Sequence record: PQ100635.1
Reading direction: 5' to 3' (one strand)
DNA: 64,000 nt
Origin: Escherichia phage PNJ-9
Shown: positions 1,978-34,052 of the stretch, one piece after another
How positions within the stretch are numbered: the stretch's first letter is position 1
How the letters are laid out: each line of letters begins with the position of its first letter
Notes under the pieces: generated by a model
Database searches by the model: none
What the model was told of the DNA's origin: nothing
The model's input: only the letters and a program-made list of their open reading frames with translations
Made by a program: the position numbers and the translations under genes

Positions 1978-3303
1978 ATGCAATTGAATTCTCGTAATCT
2001 AAAAAGTATTATTGATAACGAAGCCTTAGCATATGCGATGTACACCGTTGAAAACCGTGCAATCCCAAACATGATTGATGGATTTAAGCCGGTTCAACGT
2101 TTTGTGGTTCATCGTGCGTTAGATTTGGCTCGTGGTAATAAAGAAAAATTTCATAAACTCGCGTCAATTGCAGGCGGTGTTGCAGATTTAGGTTATCACC
2201 ATGGCGAATCTTCTGCACAAGATGCAGGTGCATTGATGGCTAACACATGGAACAACAACTATCCACTGTTAGATGGCCAGGGCAACTTTGGTTCTCGAAC
2301 AGTTCAAAAAGCTGCAGCATCTCGTTATATTTTTGCTCGTGTAAGTAAAAATTTCTATAACGTATATAAAGATACTGAATATGCTCCAGCTCATGAAGAT
2401 AAAGAACACATTCCACCAAAATTCTATCTTCCTATTATTCCGACAGTTCTTTTGAATGGTGTCTCTGGTATTGCAACCGGTTACGCAACAAATATTCTGC
2501 CTCATAGTTTTAAATCAGTCAAAAAGGCTGTATTACAAGCTCTTCAAGGTAAAAATGTCACTAAGCCAAAAGTTGAATTCCCGGAATTCCGTGGTGAAGT
2601 ACATGAAGTTGATGGACGTTATGAGATTCACGGAACATATAAGTTCACATCTCGCACTCAAATGCAGATAACTGAAATCCCATATAAATTCGACCGTGAA
2701 ACGTATGTGAGTAAGGTTCTTGACCCGTTGGAAGACAAAGGTCTAATCTCATGGGAAGATGATTGCGGTGAACACGGCTTTGGGTTTAAGGTGAAGTTCC
2801 GTAAAGAGTACTCGCTTCCTGATGATGAAGAGCTACGTCATGAAAAAATCATGAAAGATTTTAGTCTCATCGAACGTCGTTCACAAAACATCACAGTGAT
2901 TAATGAAAAGGGTAAATTAGCGGTCTACGATAACGTAGTGGACTTAATCAAAGATTTTGTTGAAGTCCGTAAGACTTACGTTCAGAAACGTATTGACAAC
3001 AAAATCATTGAATCTGAAAAAGCATTTAAACTGGCTTTTGCTAAGGCACACTTCATCAAAAAAGTTATTACAGGTGAAATTGTGATTCAGGGCAAGACTC
3101 GTAAAGCTTTGACTGAAGAGCTAGCACAAATCGAAATGTATAAAGAACATGTCGATAAACTGGTAGGCCTTAACATCTTCCATATCACTTCTGACGAAGC
3201 ACGTAAACTAGCGGAAGAAGCTAAAGCTAAGAAAGAAGAAAATGAGTATTGGAAGTCTACTGATGTTGTGACAGAGTACACTAAAGACTTGGAGGCACTT
3301 TGA
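1978..3303 (+). CDS. 52: DNA topoisomerase II medium subunit (gp52, GyrA-like)
   Basis: 441 aa; GyrA-like N-terminus (KPVQRF, active-site region) and length match T4 gp52. Confidence 0.9.
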   Translation: MQLNSRNLKSIIDNEALAYAMYTVENRAIPNMIDGFKPVQRFVVHRALDLARGNKEKFHKLASIAGGVADLGYHHGESSAQDAGALMANTWNNNYPLLDGQGNFGSRTVQKAAASRYIFARVSKNFYNVYKDTEYAPAHEDKEHIPPKFYLPIIPTVLLNGVSGIATGYATNILPHSFKSVKKAVLQALQGKNVTKPKVEFPEFRGEVHEVDGRYEIHGTYKFTSRTQMQITEIPYKFDRETYVSKVLDPLEDKGLISWEDDCGEHGFGFKVKFRKEYSLPDDEELRHEKIMKDFSLIERRSQNITVINEKGKLAVYDNVVDLIKDFVEVRKTYVQKRIDNKIIESEKAFKLAFAKAHFIKKVITGEIVIQGKTRKALTEELAQIEMYKEHVDKLVGLNIFHITSDEARKLAEEAKAKKEENEYWKSTDVVTEYTKDLEAL

Positions 3304-3379
3304 GTGCCATAGCCTTAGGATTTCTCGGTGCAATAGCTGTACTAGTGATTTGGCTGTATTGGTTGGACAAACATGATTA

Positions 3380-3400
3380 GGGAGCTTCGGCTCCTTTTTG
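3380..3400 (+). terminator. rho-independent terminator-like hairpin
   Basis: ggagc-ttcg-gctcc hairpin followed by TTTTT. Confidence 0.55.
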
Positions 3401-3421
3401 TGCATTTTTTCTCACAAAATA

Positions 3422-3453
3422 GTTTACACGTGCTTCAAACATGATATTATAGA
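3422..3453 (+). promoter_or_regulatory. sigma70-type early promoter upstream of motA
   Basis: GTTTACA 3422-3428 and TATTATAGA -10 region; same architecture as other early promoters in window. Confidence 0.55.
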
Positions 3454-3489
3454 CCTATCAAAACAAAACAACCAAATTGGAGAAATAAA

Positions 3490-4122
3490 ATGTCTAAAGT
3501 TGCTTACATCATCAAAGCTTCCGAAAACGCTCTGAATGAAAAAACCGCTGCAATAATGGTTTATATCATTAAGAACAACTTCACCACTGCTGCCAATGTC
3601 CGTGAAGCTCTGGAAGCGGAATACAATGCATCGGTTGTTAACTCTAACATTGGTGTATTGATTAAGAAAGGTTTAGTCGAAAAATCTGGTGATGGACTTA
3701 TAGCAACAGGCGAAGCAATGGATATTATCCAAAAAGCTGCAGACCTCTTTGCCCAAGAAAATGCTCCAGAACTTCTTCAGAAACGTAACACTAGAAAAGC
3801 ACGTGGAGTTACTCCCGAAATGCATGAATTAGCAAACTTTGTTTTTGAAAATATTAAAGATAAAGTTGAAGTTAAAGAAATCGGTGAAAACCGTAGTAAC
3901 TTGGAAGTTCGATTTGCAAAACGAGTTCTAGGTATTCGTCAGATCGAAATTCGTCGAGATGGTTGTCTTAGAATATTTGCATACAACATGTCAGAAACTG
4001 AATCAAAGCTGTTTACTTCTCTTGAAAATGATGTTAAGATTAAGATCGGTGGTAAATATACTTACATTGACTTCCCTAATGTGTCCAAAGAAATCATTAC
4101 CCTTGTAACTAACGTACTGTGA
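3490..4122 (+). CDS. motA: middle transcription activator MotA
   Basis: 210 aa; N-terminal MSKV.YIIKAS and NSNIGVLIKKGLVEKSGDGLI match T4 MotA. Confidence 0.9.
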   Translation: MSKVAYIIKASENALNEKTAAIMVYIIKNNFTTAANVREALEAEYNASVVNSNIGVLIKKGLVEKSGDGLIATGEAMDIIQKAADLFAQENAPELLQKRNTRKARGVTPEMHELANFVFENIKDKVEVKEIGENRSNLEVRFAKRVLGIRQIEIRRDGCLRIFAYNMSETESKLFTSLENDVKIKIGGKYTYIDFPNVSKEIITLVTNVL

Positions 4123-4132
4123 GGAATACATA

Positions 4133-4477
4133 ATGAATAAGCTGAATATTATTAACGAACTTCGTAAATGTGCAGAACCTACTCAGGAAGGATGGGATAT
4201 TTGGTACCACGGGGCTTATTTAGGGACAATTGTAAAGATTAAAGCAGGCCAATATATGGTTATTCGCGAAAATTCTGAATTCCATAATGGAGTAGCTCCT
4301 GGCGGTATACGTAAAAACTTTATGGCAGCGATCAGTTCATTTGTTGATGCAGCTTACGAAATCTATAAAGAAGATTATAAAGAATATCAGCAGTCACAAC
4401 CGGTTATTCGTTCGATTGGTGTAAATAAACAAGCACAAAAATCTATTTGGCAACGTATTAAGGAATGGTTTAAATGA
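4133..4477 (+). CDS. hypothetical protein (114 aa)
   Basis: ORF in variable motA-asiA interval; RBS present; no motif recognised. Confidence 0.5.
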
Positions 4478-7525: not shown

Positions 7526-10500
7526 TGCTAAACGAACGATATAGTTAAAAGCAACGTTTTTAACTGTGTTTTCTGTATTTCCTGTGGCATTTACAGTTAT
7601 TGTATGTCCATGGGAACCGATTGCAACAGTATGAGAATGAGCACCAATACCAACAGTATGGGAGTGGGCACCAATACCCACAGTATGTGCGTGAGCGCCT
7701 GCGCTTGCAGCAGTACCAGATATAGAGTGCGAATGTGCCCCAGAAGAAGAAGTTCCAAGCGTATTACCACCACCGGCGGATCCTCTTATAGAACCAGTAC
7801 CAGGAGCGTTGTTACTTCCCGCATAAAGAGCGCTTGTGTGGCTGTGCGCACCGGCGGTGTTTGTGGAACCGCTCAAACTATGCGTATGAGCACCAGTATT
7901 ATTACTGGTCTTAGTACCATAGTCGAAACTACTTGTCGTCTTAGTACCATAGTCAAAGCTTGATGTGGTCTTAGTACCCAAATCCGTGCTTGATGCACTT
8001 GCACTATGACTATGTGACTTAACACCGTCTGCTTCTGTACTTAATACAGCACGCCCAGATGGTTTACCCTTGATAGTTTGCCCGCGCATATCAGGCAGAG
8101 AGCCGGAAGGATACACCGCAGCTAACTTAGGATACAAGCCAACATCAAATGTTTGACCTTCCATTATGGCATAACCTTCAGGAGGTGTATCAGTAGGCCA
8201 AGGAATCGGAGCACCAATTGGATAACTTGAGACAATATCCGTCTTAAGGTTATTTATTGTGGTATTCAAGTTAGCAAAATTGCCAGAACCACCGGTGATA
8301 TTACCATCAGTACCAATACGAACATTACCAGCGCCTAATTTACCAGGAGAGTAAAAATCACCGTTTTTATTAAATTCCCAACCTAAATCCTTTATAATTG
8401 CGCCAGTAGAAACGCCATCGCCACCTTCGTGATAATGAACTCTAAAGTTACCACCATTAATTAAAGTACCAATAGAATAGCAACTATTATTTTGAACGTA
8501 TCTTTGTTTCACAATAGGAACATAAGTGCTTGTATCTGTTCTATCAATATTCATATAGAAAGGAGCACGAACGTTTTCATTATTCTGGGAAGCAAATGAA
8601 CCCGCTCCGGCTGGGCGAACAGCATCAGTACATTCTGCATCGATGTACGCCGACTGACCTATCTGCATTCTGAAATTAGGAGAAATGCGACTATTACTAG
8701 TAACAACAACAAGTTTGTTATCGTTGTCCACAGTAATCATATTACCACCAGCACCATCATCGCCTAACGTAACAGAATGACGCATTTGCACCATACCATT
8801 ATTAAGGCTAATACTAAGCGGGCGGAGATTACTTATTCCACCACTTTCACCTGCATCTTTAAGTGTAGGTATAATATGCAAAGACGCTTCAGAACGACGG
8901 AAAATAGCTCCATATTCAGCATTGTAAATACGGAAAGCATCTGCGGTATTACCGATTTTAACTTGACCGGTAATAGAACCACCACCGGATAAAACAAGCC
9001 CGTTATCCATAGTAACTTGTCCGGATAATGTACTTAATCCATTAACTCTAAGACTTCCATCGGTGATAATGCTCCCTCTTGCATTCAGTTGTCCATTAAT
9101 TTGTGTTACAACAGGTCCCACAGTTTCTGAACCGGTTGGAGCTACGCGCTGAGAATAAAAATAATATCCTTGTCCGTCAGCTACTTCAAAAACTGTTTCA
9201 CGATTACGATCGCCGGATACGTTAAATGAATTACCCCATGCTTTAACAGTTACATAACTCTTATTCTGACCTGCTCGAGTACCGCCTTCCCACATGATTT
9301 GCTTAGTGCCGTCAATACCTGAAGCTGCTTTAAAAACTAGAGAAGCATTAGTTCCATCACCATTAAAATATAATCCATTATTAAGCTTTAATGTTTGAAC
9401 AGAAGCGACGGTACCATCAGCACGCAAACTTAATGTATTTGAACCAGTGCTAATATCTAAAATTCCTGGTTCAACAAGGAGACCTTGGGACATACCAACA
9501 GCCATACGACCTGTACCACGGAAATAGTGATACATTTTAGAATTACTGTTATAACCGATATGAGTCTGACCGTCACCGTTATTATTACCATCAACATCGG
9601 TACGCGCAGTAAACATTGCTTGGTTGTTATTTGGGTAATCCCAAGTAGAACCAGAATCTCGACTATAACCAACCATCAATTTTTTAGTACTGTTAATACC
9701 ATTATTAAGAATAGTGCCGGCAGAAATACCATTCGCAACCAAATCAATAACACCGTCACGAACCCATTTAACACCAGTGTCATTATCACCAATTGCAATA
9801 CCTTTACCAAATGTGGCCAAAGGATAACGCCCTTGGGAGCCGACATCGGCAAGACCTACACCTATCGAATTAGCAACAGACATACGCCCGTCGGTGGTAT
9901 AAGACCATTGATAAACTTCAGCATTGCGCCCAGTCCAATATGAAATATTCTGTGGTTTACCTGAACGAGCATCAGCAATTTCATGGAAAATAGCAGAAGA
10001 AACATGTCCGCGGAATTTACGAAGGTAGTTTATACCATTAGTATCCAAATCTGTTTCGGTTGGAGTATATTGCCAAGTCGGTAATGAAACTAAATCATAT
10101 GCAGTATCAATATTAGTGTCCCAAGATTTAGTGCTCACATTGATATTTTTGGTAATAACTTTAGGACCAATTAAAGAACCAGCTTTAGTTTCAATATTAC
10201 TTTGAGTAACTAAATATCCATTAGATACTAATAAATTTCCGGAATCAACTTGAAAATTACCATTACGGTTAAAGGTCCAATATTTCGAAGTGCCTGTTTC
10301 ATCGATATAATGCATCTTCATTGAGCCTTCATTTACCAAGGTCCCTAATGAGAAAGTACCGTCTTTATAACGCTGCTTAAACAGCGGATGGTATTCAGAA
10401 GTAGCAGTAGTAGAACTTAAGTCGGTAAAAATAGGAGCTTTATTTAGGTGTTGATTTGCCCACGCACCATTACCGGCTGTTTTAGGTAAAAATTCAATAT

Positions 10501-30639: not shown

Positions 30640-30657
30640 TCTATAGAGGTGATTCTA

Positions 30658-31380
30658 ATGGAAAAATACACTGTGTATAAAACCACGTGTTTGGTTAACA
30701 ACAAAATTTATATAGGGGTTCATAAGACCTTAAAAGAAAATGATTCTTATTTAGGTTCCGGTACAGCTTTTAAAAATGCCGAATCAAAATATGGTAAAGA
30801 TTCTTTTAATAAAGAAATCATAAAAATATTTGAAACTAAACAAGAAGCATATGATTTAGAAGCTGAATTAGTAACTAAAGAATTTATAAAATTGGATACT
30901 AATTATAATTTGAAACCCGGCGGAGAAGGAGGCTGGGATTATATCAATGAAAACCGTATTAATGTTAATTCCAGTCCTGAAACTTCATTAAAAATTTCAG
31001 AAACACAAAAACAGAGATATAAAAACGGTGCCGTGCCATGGATTAAAGGCAAGAAATTACCAGGGCATGGGATTAAATCTAAAGAAAGTCGTCTTAAAAA
31101 TGGTAATTCATTTGAAGGCGAAAATAATCCTATGTACGGTAAAAATGTAAAAGATTTTATGAGCGAAGAAGCTATTATAGAATGGGGTAATAAAATATCC
31201 AAAGCGAATAAAGGTAAGATTCGTTCAGATGAGGCAAAAGAAAACTATTCTAAAGCAGCTAAATCCAGAAAATGGCTTATCCATATTTCAGGTAAGAAAT
31301 CTTCTACAACAGATGAAAACGACCCTAGATTGAGCCATCCTGATTGGCAATTAGGCCGCAAATGGAAAACTAATGAATAA
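30658..31380 (+). CDS. GIY-YIG homing endonuclease (Seg-like, freestanding)
   Basis: 240 aa from ATG 30658 (GGTGA RBS); N-terminal GIY-YIG module (YTVYKTT..NNKIYIGVHKT....DSYLGSG) and basic C-terminal DNA-binding region. Confidence 0.75.
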   Translation: MEKYTVYKTTCLVNNKIYIGVHKTLKENDSYLGSGTAFKNAESKYGKDSFNKEIIKIFETKQEAYDLEAELVTKEFIKLDTNYNLKPGGEGGWDYINENRINVNSSPETSLKISETQKQRYKNGAVPWIKGKKLPGHGIKSKESRLKNGNSFEGENNPMYGKNVKDFMSEEAIIEWGNKISKANKGKIRSDEAKENYSKAAKSRKWLIHISGKKSSTTDENDPRLSHPDWQLGRKWKTNE

Positions 31381-31573
31381 TATCGAAAAGATTTTTCGTA
31401 CAATCGAAGAAATTGAAAAACGTAAATGCTTTTTCTTCGGCGTATGGCCTTTAGTAAATGGACGGTTCGATATTGATGTGCTGGACTATGAACATGAAGA
31501 ATGGTTGGACGGCGGTATATTTGATAACGTCGACCAGGCAATTGAATGGTTAAATGAAAACTATGTACGATAA
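31373..31573 (+). CDS. hypothetical protein (66 aa)
   Basis: ORF overlapping HEG stop; no motif recognised. Confidence 0.4.
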   Translation: MNNIEKIFRTIEEIEKRKCFFFGVWPLVNGRFDIDVLDYEHEEWLDGGIFDNVDQAIEWLNENYVR

Positions 31574-31778
31574 ACATCATGAAATCGAAGATGAAGCATA
31601 CAAAATGCTTCGTAAACTAGTGGGACTTAATATGAGTCCTACATTAATCAACAAACTCGCAGGAATTCGTAATGATCTGAATACTCGTTACAAAGGTGAA
31701 TATCATGTAGAGTTTGTTCCTGTAGGTGAACCGACCGAGCGATTTGTTGTTCGAGTTAAAGTAAATACTGTACACTGA
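31554..31778 (+). CDS. hypothetical protein (74 aa)
   Basis: ORF; no motif recognised. Confidence 0.4.
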   Translation: MKTMYDKHHEIEDEAYKMLRKLVGLNMSPTLINKLAGIRNDLNTRYKGEYHVEFVPVGEPTERFVVRVKVNTVH

Positions 31779-31785
31779 GGTAATT

Positions 31786-32061
31786 ATGTTCCCAACTTAT
31801 TCTGAAATTGTAAAGGTAGTCTTCAGTCAGATTATTGCTAATAATATGTTTGAAGTGCTTGATAATGCAGCCGAACTCAGAGTTCATGCTCAACTAACTC
31901 ATGTACTCAATGCTTTGCTCCCAGACCAAGTAGATTCTATTGTTATTACTCTTCTCCCTGGGTCTGCACACGTCATAGTGGTATTTGATCTTGACGGCGA
32001 TTTAGTTATCCAATGTGATATCAATTTCGGTACACAAAAAATTGAATGCAAAGCAATTTAA
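31786..32061 (+). CDS. hypothetical protein (91 aa)
   Basis: ORF with GAGG RBS; no motif recognised. Confidence 0.4.
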   Translation: MFPTYSEIVKVVFSQIIANNMFEVLDNAAELRVHAQLTHVLNALLPDQVDSIVITLLPGSAHVIVVFDLDGDLVIQCDINFGTQKIECKAI

Positions 32062-32063
32062 TG

Positions 32064-32102
32064 GTTTACAACATGGTGGAGTTGTGATACTATAACTCTA
32101 CC
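32064..32102 (+). promoter_or_regulatory. sigma70-type early promoter with flanking dyad (PeSL-like)
   Basis: GTTTACA 32064-32070, TACTAT -10; dyad ggtggagtt/aactctacc (8 of 9 complementary). Confidence 0.55.
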
Positions 32103-32121
32103 AACAAATGAGGAAATAGAA

Positions 32122-32358
32122 ATGCTAAGTGAAAACCCAATTACAGTACACGAATTTCAGATTAAAGTAAAAGAATTTGCTCAAGCACTCATCAATAAAG
32201 TGTCTGAACGTTTCAAAGATGCAACATTACGAGTTATTCAAGAATCTCCACGTTCTTTTCTCATAATCGTTAATCCTAAAGATGGTGACCAAATTACTAA
32301 TCTTAAATTAGGCAGTGATGGTCTTGTTGAAGCAACTCGAGTATATGGAACACTATAA
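32122..32358 (+). CDS. hypothetical protein (78 aa)
   Basis: ORF with GAGGA RBS after promoter. Confidence 0.45.
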   Translation: MLSENPITVHEFQIKVKEFAQALINKVSERFKDATLRVIQESPRSFLIIVNPKDGDQITNLKLGSDGLVEATRVYGTL

Positions 32359-32478
32359 TGAGAGCTATCTCATTACTATCGTGAATGGTCATAAATCTGA
32401 GCACTACCAACTTAGCCTGTCTAATCCGGTTAAAGGTATTGTTGAATCAGAATCTGTTTATATCTCCTAAGGATTGTT

Positions 32479-33471
32479 ATGTTACCTGTCGTCAGAAAAC
32501 TTATTTCTCCAAAAGAACTGGCTGAGATTATTCCTTTGTCGGAAGCTTACGCATCACAAGTGGCTTCTCATCGCGAACAAGTTAATTCGATTATGAACGG
32601 TGAAGACCCACGCAAACTTATTGTTGTAGGTCCTTGTTCAATTCATGACCCTATTGCTGCTGTTGAATACGGCAAACGTCTGGCTGAACTTCAAACTCGT
32701 CTTCCTAATGTTCTGTTAGTGATGCGCGTTTATTTTGAAAAGCCTCGAACTACCGTAGGTTGGAAAGGTCTTGTAAATGATCCATATCTTGACGGAAGTT
32801 TTGATATGAACCACGGTCTTATAGTTGCACGAACATTGTGTCGTAAACTTCTACGTATGGGACTTCCATTAGCAACTGAAGTATTAGACCCATTCACGAT
32901 TAAGTATCTTTCTGGTATTTTCTCATGGGTTGCTATTGGCGCCCGTACGACTGAAAGTCAGACACATCGTGAAATTGCTTCAGGTCTACCGATGTGCGTA
33001 GGCTTCAAGAACGCAACCAATGGTTCTATTAAAGTAGCTACAGACGCGATGTATAGTGCCGCCTGGCCTCATCGGTATATGGGTATGGACGTCGATGGTA
33101 CTGTAGGCATTGTTGAAGCTGAAGGTAATCAGAATACGCATATCGTATTGCGTGGCGGGACTAACGGCCCGAACTATCATTCTTCTGATATTCAAGAAGC
33201 TTCTAACAAAGCAAGTGCATTAGGTCTGAATCATTATGTAATGGTTGACTGTAGCCATGCAAACGCTGATGGGTATTATAGCAATCAAATTGGTATTGGT
33301 AAAAATTTAGCAGCTAATGATTTGGTCAAAGGAATTATGATAGAATCATTCCTACATGAAGGAAATCAAAAAATTTCTGATAATATGTCCTATGGCGTTT
33401 CCGTTACCGATGCGTGCATCGGTTGGGAACAAACTAAAGAGCTGTTAACTTATATTAATAAGGTTCAATAA
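32479..33471 (+). CDS. 3-deoxy-D-arabino-heptulosonate 7-phosphate (DAHP) synthase, AroG/F/H class I-alpha type
   Basis: 330 aa; motifs recalled from E. coli AroG: GPCSIHD, RVYFEKPRTTVGWKGL.NDP, WVAIGARTTESQ.HRE.ASGL, RGG..PNY, D.SHAN, ESFLHEGNQ, TDACIGW. Confidence 0.85.
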   Translation: MLPVVRKLISPKELAEIIPLSEAYASQVASHREQVNSIMNGEDPRKLIVVGPCSIHDPIAAVEYGKRLAELQTRLPNVLLVMRVYFEKPRTTVGWKGLVNDPYLDGSFDMNHGLIVARTLCRKLLRMGLPLATEVLDPFTIKYLSGIFSWVAIGARTTESQTHREIASGLPMCVGFKNATNGSIKVATDAMYSAAWPHRYMGMDVDGTVGIVEAEGNQNTHIVLRGGTNGPNYHSSDIQEASNKASALGLNHYVMVDCSHANADGYYSNQIGIGKNLAANDLVKGIMIESFLHEGNQKISDNMSYGVSVTDACIGWEQTKELLTYINKVQ

Positions 33472-34052
33472 TGAAAGCTAGCACATACCTTCAGATTGCA
33501 TATCTGATTTCTCAAGAATCAAAATGTTGTTCATGGAAAGTTGGCGCAGTCATTGAAAAAGATGGACGCATTATCTCTACTGGATATAATGGCTCACCAG
33601 CAGGTGGCGTTAACTGTTGTGAACATGCATCCGAAAACGGTTGGTTGAAGAATAAACCAAGCCCGGTCATCGTTGCTGGACATAAAGAAGGCACTACAGC
33701 ATTTGGACGGGTGGATAATTTTGTTTTGGCTAAAGAACATCGGGCCGCTCATAGTGCATGGTCTGCTAATAACGAAATCCATGCTGAATTGAATGCCATT
33801 TTGTTTGCAGCTCGTAAAGGTAATTCTATTGAAGGTGCTACGTTGTATACGACACTTTCTCCATGTCCTGATTGCACTAAAGCTATTACGCAGTCAGGTA
33901 TTAAAAAGGTTGTATACGCAGAATTATATGACAGATCTCCTGAAAATTGGGCAGACATTCTAAAACAAGCCGGTATTGAAGTAATTCAGTACTCTCGTAA
34001 TAATCTTCGTTCTCTGAATTGGGAACAAATCCGAAACTTTTGTGGTGAATAA
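33471..34052 (+). CDS. cd: dCMP deaminase
   Basis: 193 aa; zinc-binding HAE...PCPDC cytidine/dCMP deaminase motifs; length equals T4 Cd. Confidence 0.9.
   Translation: MKASTYLQIAYLISQESKCCSWKVGAVIEKDGRIISTGYNGSPAGGVNCCEHASENGWLKNKPSPVIVAGHKEGTTAFGRVDNFVLAKEHRAAHSAWSANNEIHAELNAILFAARKGNSIEGATLYTTLSPCPDCTKAITQSGIKKVVYAELYDRSPENWADILKQAGIEVIQYSRNNLRSLNWEQIRNFCGE

Follow-up and report, generated by a model that had tools for sequence, protein, structure and literature searches.

A DAHP synthase gene upstream of cd in Escherichia phage PNJ-9 belongs to a T4-like phage clade with a rebuilt and likely feedback-insensitive inhibitor pocket

The 64,000-nt stretch of Escherichia phage PNJ-9 DNA analysed here (sequence record PQ100635.1), hereafter the window, carries a gene for a class I-alpha DAHP synthase (DAHPS; EC 2.5.1.54), DAHP being the 7-phosphate of 3-deoxy-D-arabino-heptulosonate, at 32479..33471 on the + strand, which starts with ATG and encodes 330 amino acids (aa). 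The gene order in this region runs pseT, a GIY-YIG open reading frame (ORF), small cd.4/cd.3-like ORFs, cd.2 (DUF7320), a 41-aa ORF, DAHPS, cd, 31.1 and gp31, which agrees with the position between pseT and cd given in the initial annotation of this DNA. That annotation had also described the 330-aa ORF by five motifs, and at the coordinates given there the translation does contain GPCSIHD (residues 51-57), KPRTT (88-92), DCSHAN (257-262), ESFLHEGNQ (289-297) and TDACIGW (310-316). Taken as a whole, the locus is best explained as encoding a competent class I-alpha DAHPS of a clade of T4-like phages, which would be released from feedback control, expressed early and carried on a cassette acquired by recombination, an explanation that we regard as likely.

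Family membership is evident from several profiles. The ORF matches Pfam DAHP_synth_1 (PF00793) with E = 1.8e-74 and 250.5 bits against a cut-off of 25.5, the aroFGH equivalog model NCBIfam TIGR00034 with 426.4 bits against 173.2, and the subfamily model PRK12755 with 454.2 bits against 343. Its closest solved structure is E. coli AroF (6agm, E = 3.7e-104), followed by Neisseria DAH7PS and E. coli AroG, and given the Pfam, TIGR00034 and 6agm scores the strength of the match lies far beyond chance. The four metal ligands are C53, H260, E289 and D311, corresponding to C61, H268, E302 and D326 in AroG. Ten residues that bind PEP (phosphoenolpyruvate) and E4P (erythrose-4-phosphate), the two substrates, are conserved as R83, K88-P89-R90-T91, G154-A155-R156, K177 and R225, equivalent to R92, K97-P98-R99-T100, G163-A164-R165, K186 and R234 of AroG, and both sets are kept in 25 of the 25 members of the phage clade described below. 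An AlphaFold2 model built from a 43-sequence alignment (mean predicted local distance difference test 93.6, predicted template modelling score 0.92) superposes on 1GG1, 1KFL and 4HSN with a template modelling (TM) score of 0.95-0.96 and a root-mean-square deviation of 1.3 A. It shows the internal beta-hairpin of class I-alpha, with strands 198-203 and 209-214, and keeps the N-terminal helices, only the first ~8 residues being missing. The assignment to class I-alpha made at the outset is thus borne out by profile scores, metal ligands and substrate-binding residues, and alignment to AroF, AroG and AroH, which might have revealed a loss of catalytic residues, found every one of them intact. Judged from sequence and model, the phage protein is very probably an active DAHP synthase, converting PEP and erythrose-4-phosphate to DAHP and Pi.

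Within this class, the protein is 51% identical to AroF, 48% to AroG and 44% to AroH. It does not reach the AroG equivalog model NF006723 (364 bits against a cut-off of 568) or the AroH subfamily model NF009396 (383.8 bits against 463), and Gly occupies the position of the AroG marker Ser211. The markers of an AroF-type (Tyr-type) pocket, P148 and G212, are present as P138 and G202; as for the other features by which AroF is defined, Q152 and S181 are replaced by K142 and P171, and instead of an intact N-terminal segment, AroF residues 2-10 are left without counterpart. The label AroG-type used at first is acceptable loosely, as a synonym of class I-alpha, and fails in the strict sense, the protein being closer to AroF and below both the AroG and the AroH cut-offs.

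A database search placed the phage DAHPS in a discrete group of 24 clusters, 57-98% identical to it and 319-343 aa long, whose named members are all phages, while the next matches below this group are cellular enzymes of 341-388 aa with at most 55% identity. The 24 clusters and the window protein are monophyletic in 200 of 200 neighbor-joining (NJ) bootstraps, and in 192 of 200 after other viral sequences were added. By megablast, 145 phage records match the gene, 139 of them at 95% nucleotide identity or more and 116 at 99-100%; nearly all belong to Escherichia or Shigella Mosigvirus, and most annotate the gene as phospho-2-dehydro-3-deoxyheptonate aldolase, DAHP synthase, aroF or AroG. A homologue was found by tblastn in 212 phage records, with identities of 77% in Kanagawavirus and Edwardsiella phages, 67-69% in Klebsiella, Serratia and Erwinia phages and 58% in Proteus phages, and PHROG 5045 ("moron, auxiliary metabolic gene and host takeover") matches over residues 1-330 with E = 1.5e-181. 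The gene has been mentioned as an auxiliary metabolic gene, without analysis, in two genome papers (PMC11845039, PMC8022965). As such it is already known, a catalogued phage auxiliary metabolic gene, and with annotations in about 140 phage genomes its novelty is lower than was first assumed. The expectation that it is not a T4 gene was correct, T4 having cd.1 at this position, and it is also missing from RB69, the type species of Mosigvirus, in which cd.2 abuts cd.

Between genera, the ratio of nonsynonymous to synonymous substitution rates (dN/dS) of DAHPS is 0.15-0.24, with dS near saturation, and the gene is under purifying selection. Its GC content is 40.9% and that at third codon positions (GC3) 29%, like neighbouring phage genes and unlike E. 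coli aroF (51.8% and 50.4%), and this likeness in GC3 marks it as an old phage resident, long settled in this region of T4-like genomes. Synteny in the form pseT-cd.2-DAHPS-cd-31.1-gp31-rIII is found in Mosigvirus, Kanagawavirus, Marfavirus, Bragavirus, Serratia, Erwinia and EcS1-type phages, the order pseT-cd.2-DAHPS-cd-gp31 being kept in at least six genera. One or two small ORFs (~90 aa) lie between DAHPS and cd in Bragavirus (Proteus phage PM2, 4457..5016) and in Serratia and EcS1-type phages (about 4000..4330), and the tight overlap of DAHPS and cd seen in the window is therefore not universal.

The most distinctive part of the protein is the region that binds inhibitors in its relatives. 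The shortened N-terminal segment MLPVVRKLISP (32479..32511, + strand) lacks any equivalent of residues 2-9 in AroG and of residues 2-10 in AroF. Ahead of the catalytic Cys there are 52 residues in the phage DAHPS, 60 in AroG, 61 in AroF and 59 in AroH, in agreement with the initial estimate of an N-terminus about 8 residues shorter than that of AroG, and no in-frame start codon was found upstream of the DAHPS ATG. Across the phage clade the corresponding length is 48-53 residues, as opposed to 54-95 in cellular and giant-virus enzymes. In this segment, AroG D6/D7 and AroF N8/I11 (N8K, delta-Ile11) are involved in inhibition; a role of the extreme N-terminus has reportedly been described by Jossek in 2001 and Zhang in 2014. 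In class I-alpha enzymes the inhibitor-binding site is supplied by the N-terminal extension together with the beta-hairpin (PMC4735112).

The inhibitor pocket itself is also changed. Clade-specific substitutions occupy the codons of I141, K142 and G146 (AroG P150, Q151 and D155) at 32899..32916 and the codon of P171 (AroG S180, where S180F is feedback-resistant) at 32989..32991, while the beta-hairpin of the allosteric element, at 33076..33120, contains Y200 (AroG F209), G202 (the AroF-type Gly), V212 and A214 (AroG T223), all on the + strand. An unbiased column scan compared the 25 members of the phage clade with about 98 cellular clusters, selecting columns in which one residue was fixed in at least 92% of the phage members, another residue was fixed in at least 90% of the cellular clusters, and the phage residue occurred in at most 5% of the latter. 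Six of 329 aligned columns were fixed differently by this measure, namely P150I, Q151K, D155G, S180P, F209Y and T223A in AroG numbering. P150L confers complete feedback resistance on AroG, and S180F, F209A/S, L175D, L179A and V221A are likewise feedback-resistant (PMC9529685). The side chains of Q151/Q152 and S180/S181 bind the inhibitor main chain in AroG/AroF, and D155 is a salt-bridge residue that stabilises the inhibitor site (PMC9529685). Published inhibitor-contact or feedback-resistance positions account for four of the six columns (P150, Q151, S180 and F209), with a hypergeometric P of 1.5e-5 when compared with 12 alignable positions drawn from the literature, a value that is only indicative as the positions had been inspected before the test. 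Moreover, I141, K142, G146, P171, Y200 and A214 are kept in 24-25 of 25 clusters of a clade that diverges to 57% identity, and over 13 pocket positions the mean entropy is 0.13 in the phage clade, compared with 1.02 in the rest of the protein (Mann-Whitney p = 4e-4).

The phage enzyme has the sequence features of the feedback-resistant class, combining substitutions at P150, Q151, S180 and F209 (I141, K142, P171 and Y200) with the N-terminal truncation. The initial annotation had suggested feedback insensitivity from the short N-terminus, and this inference is now considerably stronger, since substitutions lie in the inhibitor pocket as well, at positions that published work links to feedback resistance. 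We consider it likely, from these residues, that Tyr, Phe and Trp do not inhibit the phage DAHPS. Read most simply, the six pocket changes are co-adapted and would hold the tight-dimer interface in a stable conformation that is permanently free of inhibition.

DAHP synthases borne by other viruses provide a point of reference. IMG/VR contains about 55 further class I-alpha enzymes, mostly on giant-virus metagenome-assembled genomes (MAGs), with intact catalytic residues, a canonical inhibitor pocket (xPQD-LS-FG-T; PQ...S...F) and full-length N-termini. The giant-virus DAHP synthases are probably still regulated, to judge from these residues, and the proposition that all viral DAHP synthases are deregulated was rejected on account of these copies. 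Dozens of the giant-virus MAG contigs (L030-L092, IMG/VR GVMAG) carry such genes; these are binned MAGs, and the contigs may be viral or cellular contamination. Among tailed phages, changes of the S180P type occur in three lineages only: the T4-like clade, a pair of IMG/VR contigs of 262 kb and 27 kb (L026 and L027) and Aeromonas phage HJ05. The L026 gene lies at 2971..4020, and its product is 48% identical to the phage DAHPS. In the L026/L027 lineage the DAHPS is flanked by a eukaryotic-type topoisomerase IB and thymidylate kinase, the pocket, partly parallel to that of the T4-like clade, reads N151, H155, P180, Y209 and S223 (Q151N, D155H, S180P, F209Y and T223S) and the N-terminus is full-length, while the HJ05 pocket has H151, P155, P180 and V209. 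Two bacterial proteins, P0087 and P0095, also have P180, in a pocket of the form P-A-G...L-P...H-G without Q151 and S180, and the former is found in a bacterial chromosomal context (contig L012, 6001..7083), near uvrC, pgsA and ABC transporter genes. In NJ trees these two proteins, L026 and HJ05 are nearest to the T4-like clade, with bootstraps of at most 26%, and the resemblance may come from shared ancestry or from convergence.

Expression of the gene was considered from its upstream region. An early promoter-like site, GGTTTAC-N17-TACTAT with an upstream TG, lies between cd.3 and cd.2 at 32063..32093 (+ strand) and aligns almost base for base with the cd.3/cd.2 intergenic region of T4, in which the T4 record annotates the early promoter Pe133295. 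Matches of the sigma-70-like type over the whole region number 17, against 18.8 expected from shuffles, and the promoter call therefore rests on T4 homology and not on the scan. The first gene of the transcription unit is the resident cd.2 homologue (DUF7320, phrog_1504; 32122..32358, + strand), followed by the 41-aa ORF; the early promoter proposed initially is upheld by the T4 homology, and the single ORF said to separate it from DAHPS has to be replaced by two, cd.2 and the 41-aa remnant. A Shine-Dalgarno sequence, AAGGA, is found at 32469..32473 (+ strand), 5 nt upstream of the DAHPS ATG, and directly downstream cd (dCMP deaminase; 33471..34052, + strand) begins in an overlap with the DAHPS stop codon, as TAATG. 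Other promoters or terminators that might isolate DAHPS were rejected, as neither a late promoter TATAAATA nor a MotA box was found between 31300 and the DAHPS start codon, nor a + strand terminator between the promoter-like site and DAHPS. Early co-transcription of DAHPS with cd.2 and cd is accordingly a prediction well supported by homology. The sole match to the MotA-box pattern [AT][AT]TGCTT[TC]A in 31300-33500 is at 32974..32982 (+ strand), inside DAHPS and ~500 nt upstream of cd, where it might serve cd as a middle promoter or have arisen by chance.

Two further observations concern the neighbouring genes. The GIY-YIG ORF (30649..31380, + strand), located between pseT and the cd.4-like ORF, encodes a 243-aa homing endonuclease with GIY-YIG and NUMOD3 domains (Seg-like); it is absent at the pseT position in moskry, ST0 and RB69, and copies of at least 90% identity were found in two phage records only (WFbE185, annotated "putative intron endonuclease"). 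In Proteus phage PM2, too, pseT is immediately followed by a homing endonuclease, and the pseT downstream junction may for this reason be a recurrent insertion site. In the RB69 record cd (7743..8252) encodes 169 aa ending in ...ILKPSWY*, compared with 193 aa (...ILKQAGIEV...FCGE*) in the window and in T4, which looks like a C-terminal frameshift or truncation.

Comparison with RB69 and other relatives lacking the gene delimits a DAHPS cassette at 32374..33467 (+ strand), a clean extra segment of 1113 bp counted from repeat to repeat. It is flanked by two copies of a 19-nt imperfect direct repeat, identical at 16 of 19 positions: the left copy, ATAATGAGAGCTATCTCAT (32355..32373, + strand), is a degenerate version of the junction between the cd.2 stop and the cd start, and the right copy, ATAATGAAAGCTAGCACAT (33468..33486, + strand), holds the overlapping DAHPS stop and cd start. 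Between resident cd.2 and DAHPS, the 41-aa ORF (32345..32470, + strand; phrog_15876), annotated as hypothetical in ST0, corresponds to the truncated C-terminal half of a foreign cd.2. It matches DUF7320 with E = 1.4e-5, with phrog_1504 as a second match, and is most like cd.2 of the DAHPS-carrying Kanagawavirus and Marfavirus phages: E is 1.7e-6 with cd.2 of Entb_45 (Enterobacter phage) and 3.4e-5 with that of F48 (Klebsiella phage), as against 0.22 with the resident cd.2 of the window and 0.15 with that of RB69. Since cd.2 directly abuts DAHPS in the genera of Entb_45 and F48, the cassette can be read as the 3' half of a foreign cd.2 plus DAHPS, joined at the first codons of cd, and it is the footprint of a recombinational acquisition from another T4-like phage. 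The 41-aa ORF itself is probably a recombination remnant and not a functional gene. Loss from RB69 by simple deletion is not favoured as the whole story, the half cd.2 of foreign type within the cassette indicating recombinational gain, although secondary loss of the cassette via the 19-nt repeats may have taken place. The cassette-less junction is present in 20 records, compared with about 139 that have the cassette. Of the 20, 11 are Mosigvirus (RB69, mar005P1, moha, JK36 and JK42 among them) and nine are WG01/QL01-type phages. Even a single species shows both states, moskry having the cassette and vB_Eco_mar005P1 lacking it. DAHPS is thus a dispensable, mobile accessory gene among these phages.

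The favoured explanation combines these elements as follows. The enzyme belongs to a clade specific to T4-like phages (Straboviridae). Early transcription of its gene would start at the conserved cd.3/cd.2 promoter and take in cd.2 as well as cd, a gene of nucleotide metabolism. The allosteric machinery has been rebuilt in the clade through loss of the N-terminus and replacement of inhibitor-contact residues (Q151K and S180P, along with P150I, D155G, F209Y and T223A). Tyr, Phe and Trp would then no longer switch the enzyme off, and the infected cell would keep carbon entering the shikimate/chorismate pathway regardless of host feedback. The benefit may consist in aromatic amino acids for phage protein synthesis or, alternatively, in cofactors made from chorismate, folate for example, which would serve the neighbouring dTMP and hydroxymethyl-dCMP (hm-dCMP) enzymes, frd, td and cd lying close by. 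Mosigvirus gained the cassette from another T4-like phage by recombination, and it is polymorphic even in one species.

Several points weigh against this explanation. Twenty close relatives, RB69 among them, do without the gene, which shows it to be dispensable, and a literature search for biochemical or genetic work on members of the clade returned only annotation-level mentions (PMC11845039, PMC8022965). Among the equivalent single substitutions in Corynebacterium AroF, Q159A gave an unstable enzyme, D163A failed to be expressed and S188F was poorly active (PMC9529685), and full activity of the phage DAHPS can for this reason not be assumed. The beta-hairpin, the AroF-type P148 and G212, and D146 are retained, which leaves room for residual Tyr binding. 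The strong conservation of the pocket is unlike drift and is not what would be expected if a regulatory site had simply been lost; it could equally well reflect a new ligand or a structural role of these residues where the dimer subunits meet. The retained features, with L179 added, together with AroF being the nearest relative among solved structures and among E. coli paralogues alike, would suit an ordinary AroF-like, Tyr-inhibited DAHP synthase that merely adds enzyme copies, its N-terminal and pocket differences being neutral divergence. We hold this to be improbable, as the only six columns setting the clade apart from some 98 cellular clusters are concentrated in the inhibitor site, where Q151/Q152 and S180/S181 of AroG/AroF touch the main chain of the inhibitor and confer resistance when changed, and as PQ...S...F is kept in giant-virus and cellular copies, which argues that the pocket changes are not generic divergence.

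Conservation of the new residues in nearly every cluster, far tighter than in the rest of the protein, can also be taken to mean that the pocket was re-specified and not disabled, with I141, K142, G146, P171, Y200 and A214 binding another effector, for instance a phage-specific or nucleotide-related metabolite. DAHP synthesis would in that case be tied to the infection state. The change from Q to K brings a charge into the pocket, and the co-transcribed cd has a homologue annotated in the T4 record as allosteric and hm-dCTP-activated; however, the ligand is purely hypothetical, the same positions lie at the tight-dimer interface, where structural constraint alone could explain their conservation, and with the N-terminal lid gone the pocket is more probably reduced in size or closed, so that we consider re-specification unlikely. 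A pseudo-enzyme or moonlighting protein, sequestering PEP or E4P or binding a host factor, would be compatible with a gene that is dispensable in nature and whose catalysis is predicted from sequence and model, but the catalytic and substrate-binding residues are invariant across the clade, dN/dS is 0.15-0.24 and the fold superposes on active enzymes at 1.3 A, and such a role is very improbable. Beyond the deregulated enzyme that we favour, a more speculative extension, to which we give rather little credence, is that the former amino-acid pocket without its N-terminal lid is selectively maintained, either as a locked-on state or as a new effector site for the infection state, and that S180P in L026/L027 and HJ05 represents convergent escape from host feedback. 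Giant viruses would stand outside this proposed S180P-type escape.

While the gene itself is ordinary, the signature in its regulatory site is apparently undescribed and is the part that could matter. If the favoured explanation is true, these phages install a version of the enzyme that bypasses the host's main control point for the entry of carbon into aromatic/chorismate metabolism, beyond adding an extra enzyme copy. Metabolic engineering has a need for feedback-resistant DAHP synthases, as the point mutants made singly for this purpose often prove unstable (PMC9529685), and the clade would offer a stable, naturally co-adapted scaffold for such enzymes. Pairs of nearly isogenic phages, one with and one without the 1.1-kb cassette, also exist in nature.

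The phage DAHPS can finally be set beside the systems to which it is related. It is a member of PHROG 5045, the annotated aldolase of Mosigvirus, Kanagawavirus, Marfavirus, Bragavirus and related T4-like phages, and Shigella phage SSE1 and Escherichia phage ZQ3 share it at 99.9% nucleotide identity with the same pseT-cd.2-DAHPS-cd synteny; most of these relatives are without the GIY-YIG endonuclease ORF that follows pseT in the window, and there is otherwise no substantive difference. The virus-borne DAHP synthases of giant viruses and IMG/VR have, like the phage enzymes, intact catalytic residues, and differ from them in their canonical pocket and long N-terminus. The Tyr-sensitive AroF of E. 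coli (PDB 6AGM/6AGL) shares the (beta/alpha)8 barrel of class I-alpha together with the inserted beta-hairpin, and its metal and substrate residues are identical to those of the phage enzyme. It differs in its length of 356 aa as against 330, the phage protein having internal deletions of 1, 5 and 3 residues and a shorter C-terminus, in the phage-like base composition of the phage gene, and at P151, Q152, D156, S181, F210 and T224, which are I, K, G, P, Y and A in the phage. The Phe-sensitive AroG (PDB 1QR7/1KFL) has the same fold (TM 0.95-0.96) at 48% identity, and at the positions altered in its engineered variants (P150L, S180F, F209A/S, Q151 variants and N-terminal engineering) the phage clade is naturally substituted. 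Laboratory mutations made singly are often destabilising, whereas the phage clade combines six conserved changes with an N-terminal truncation.

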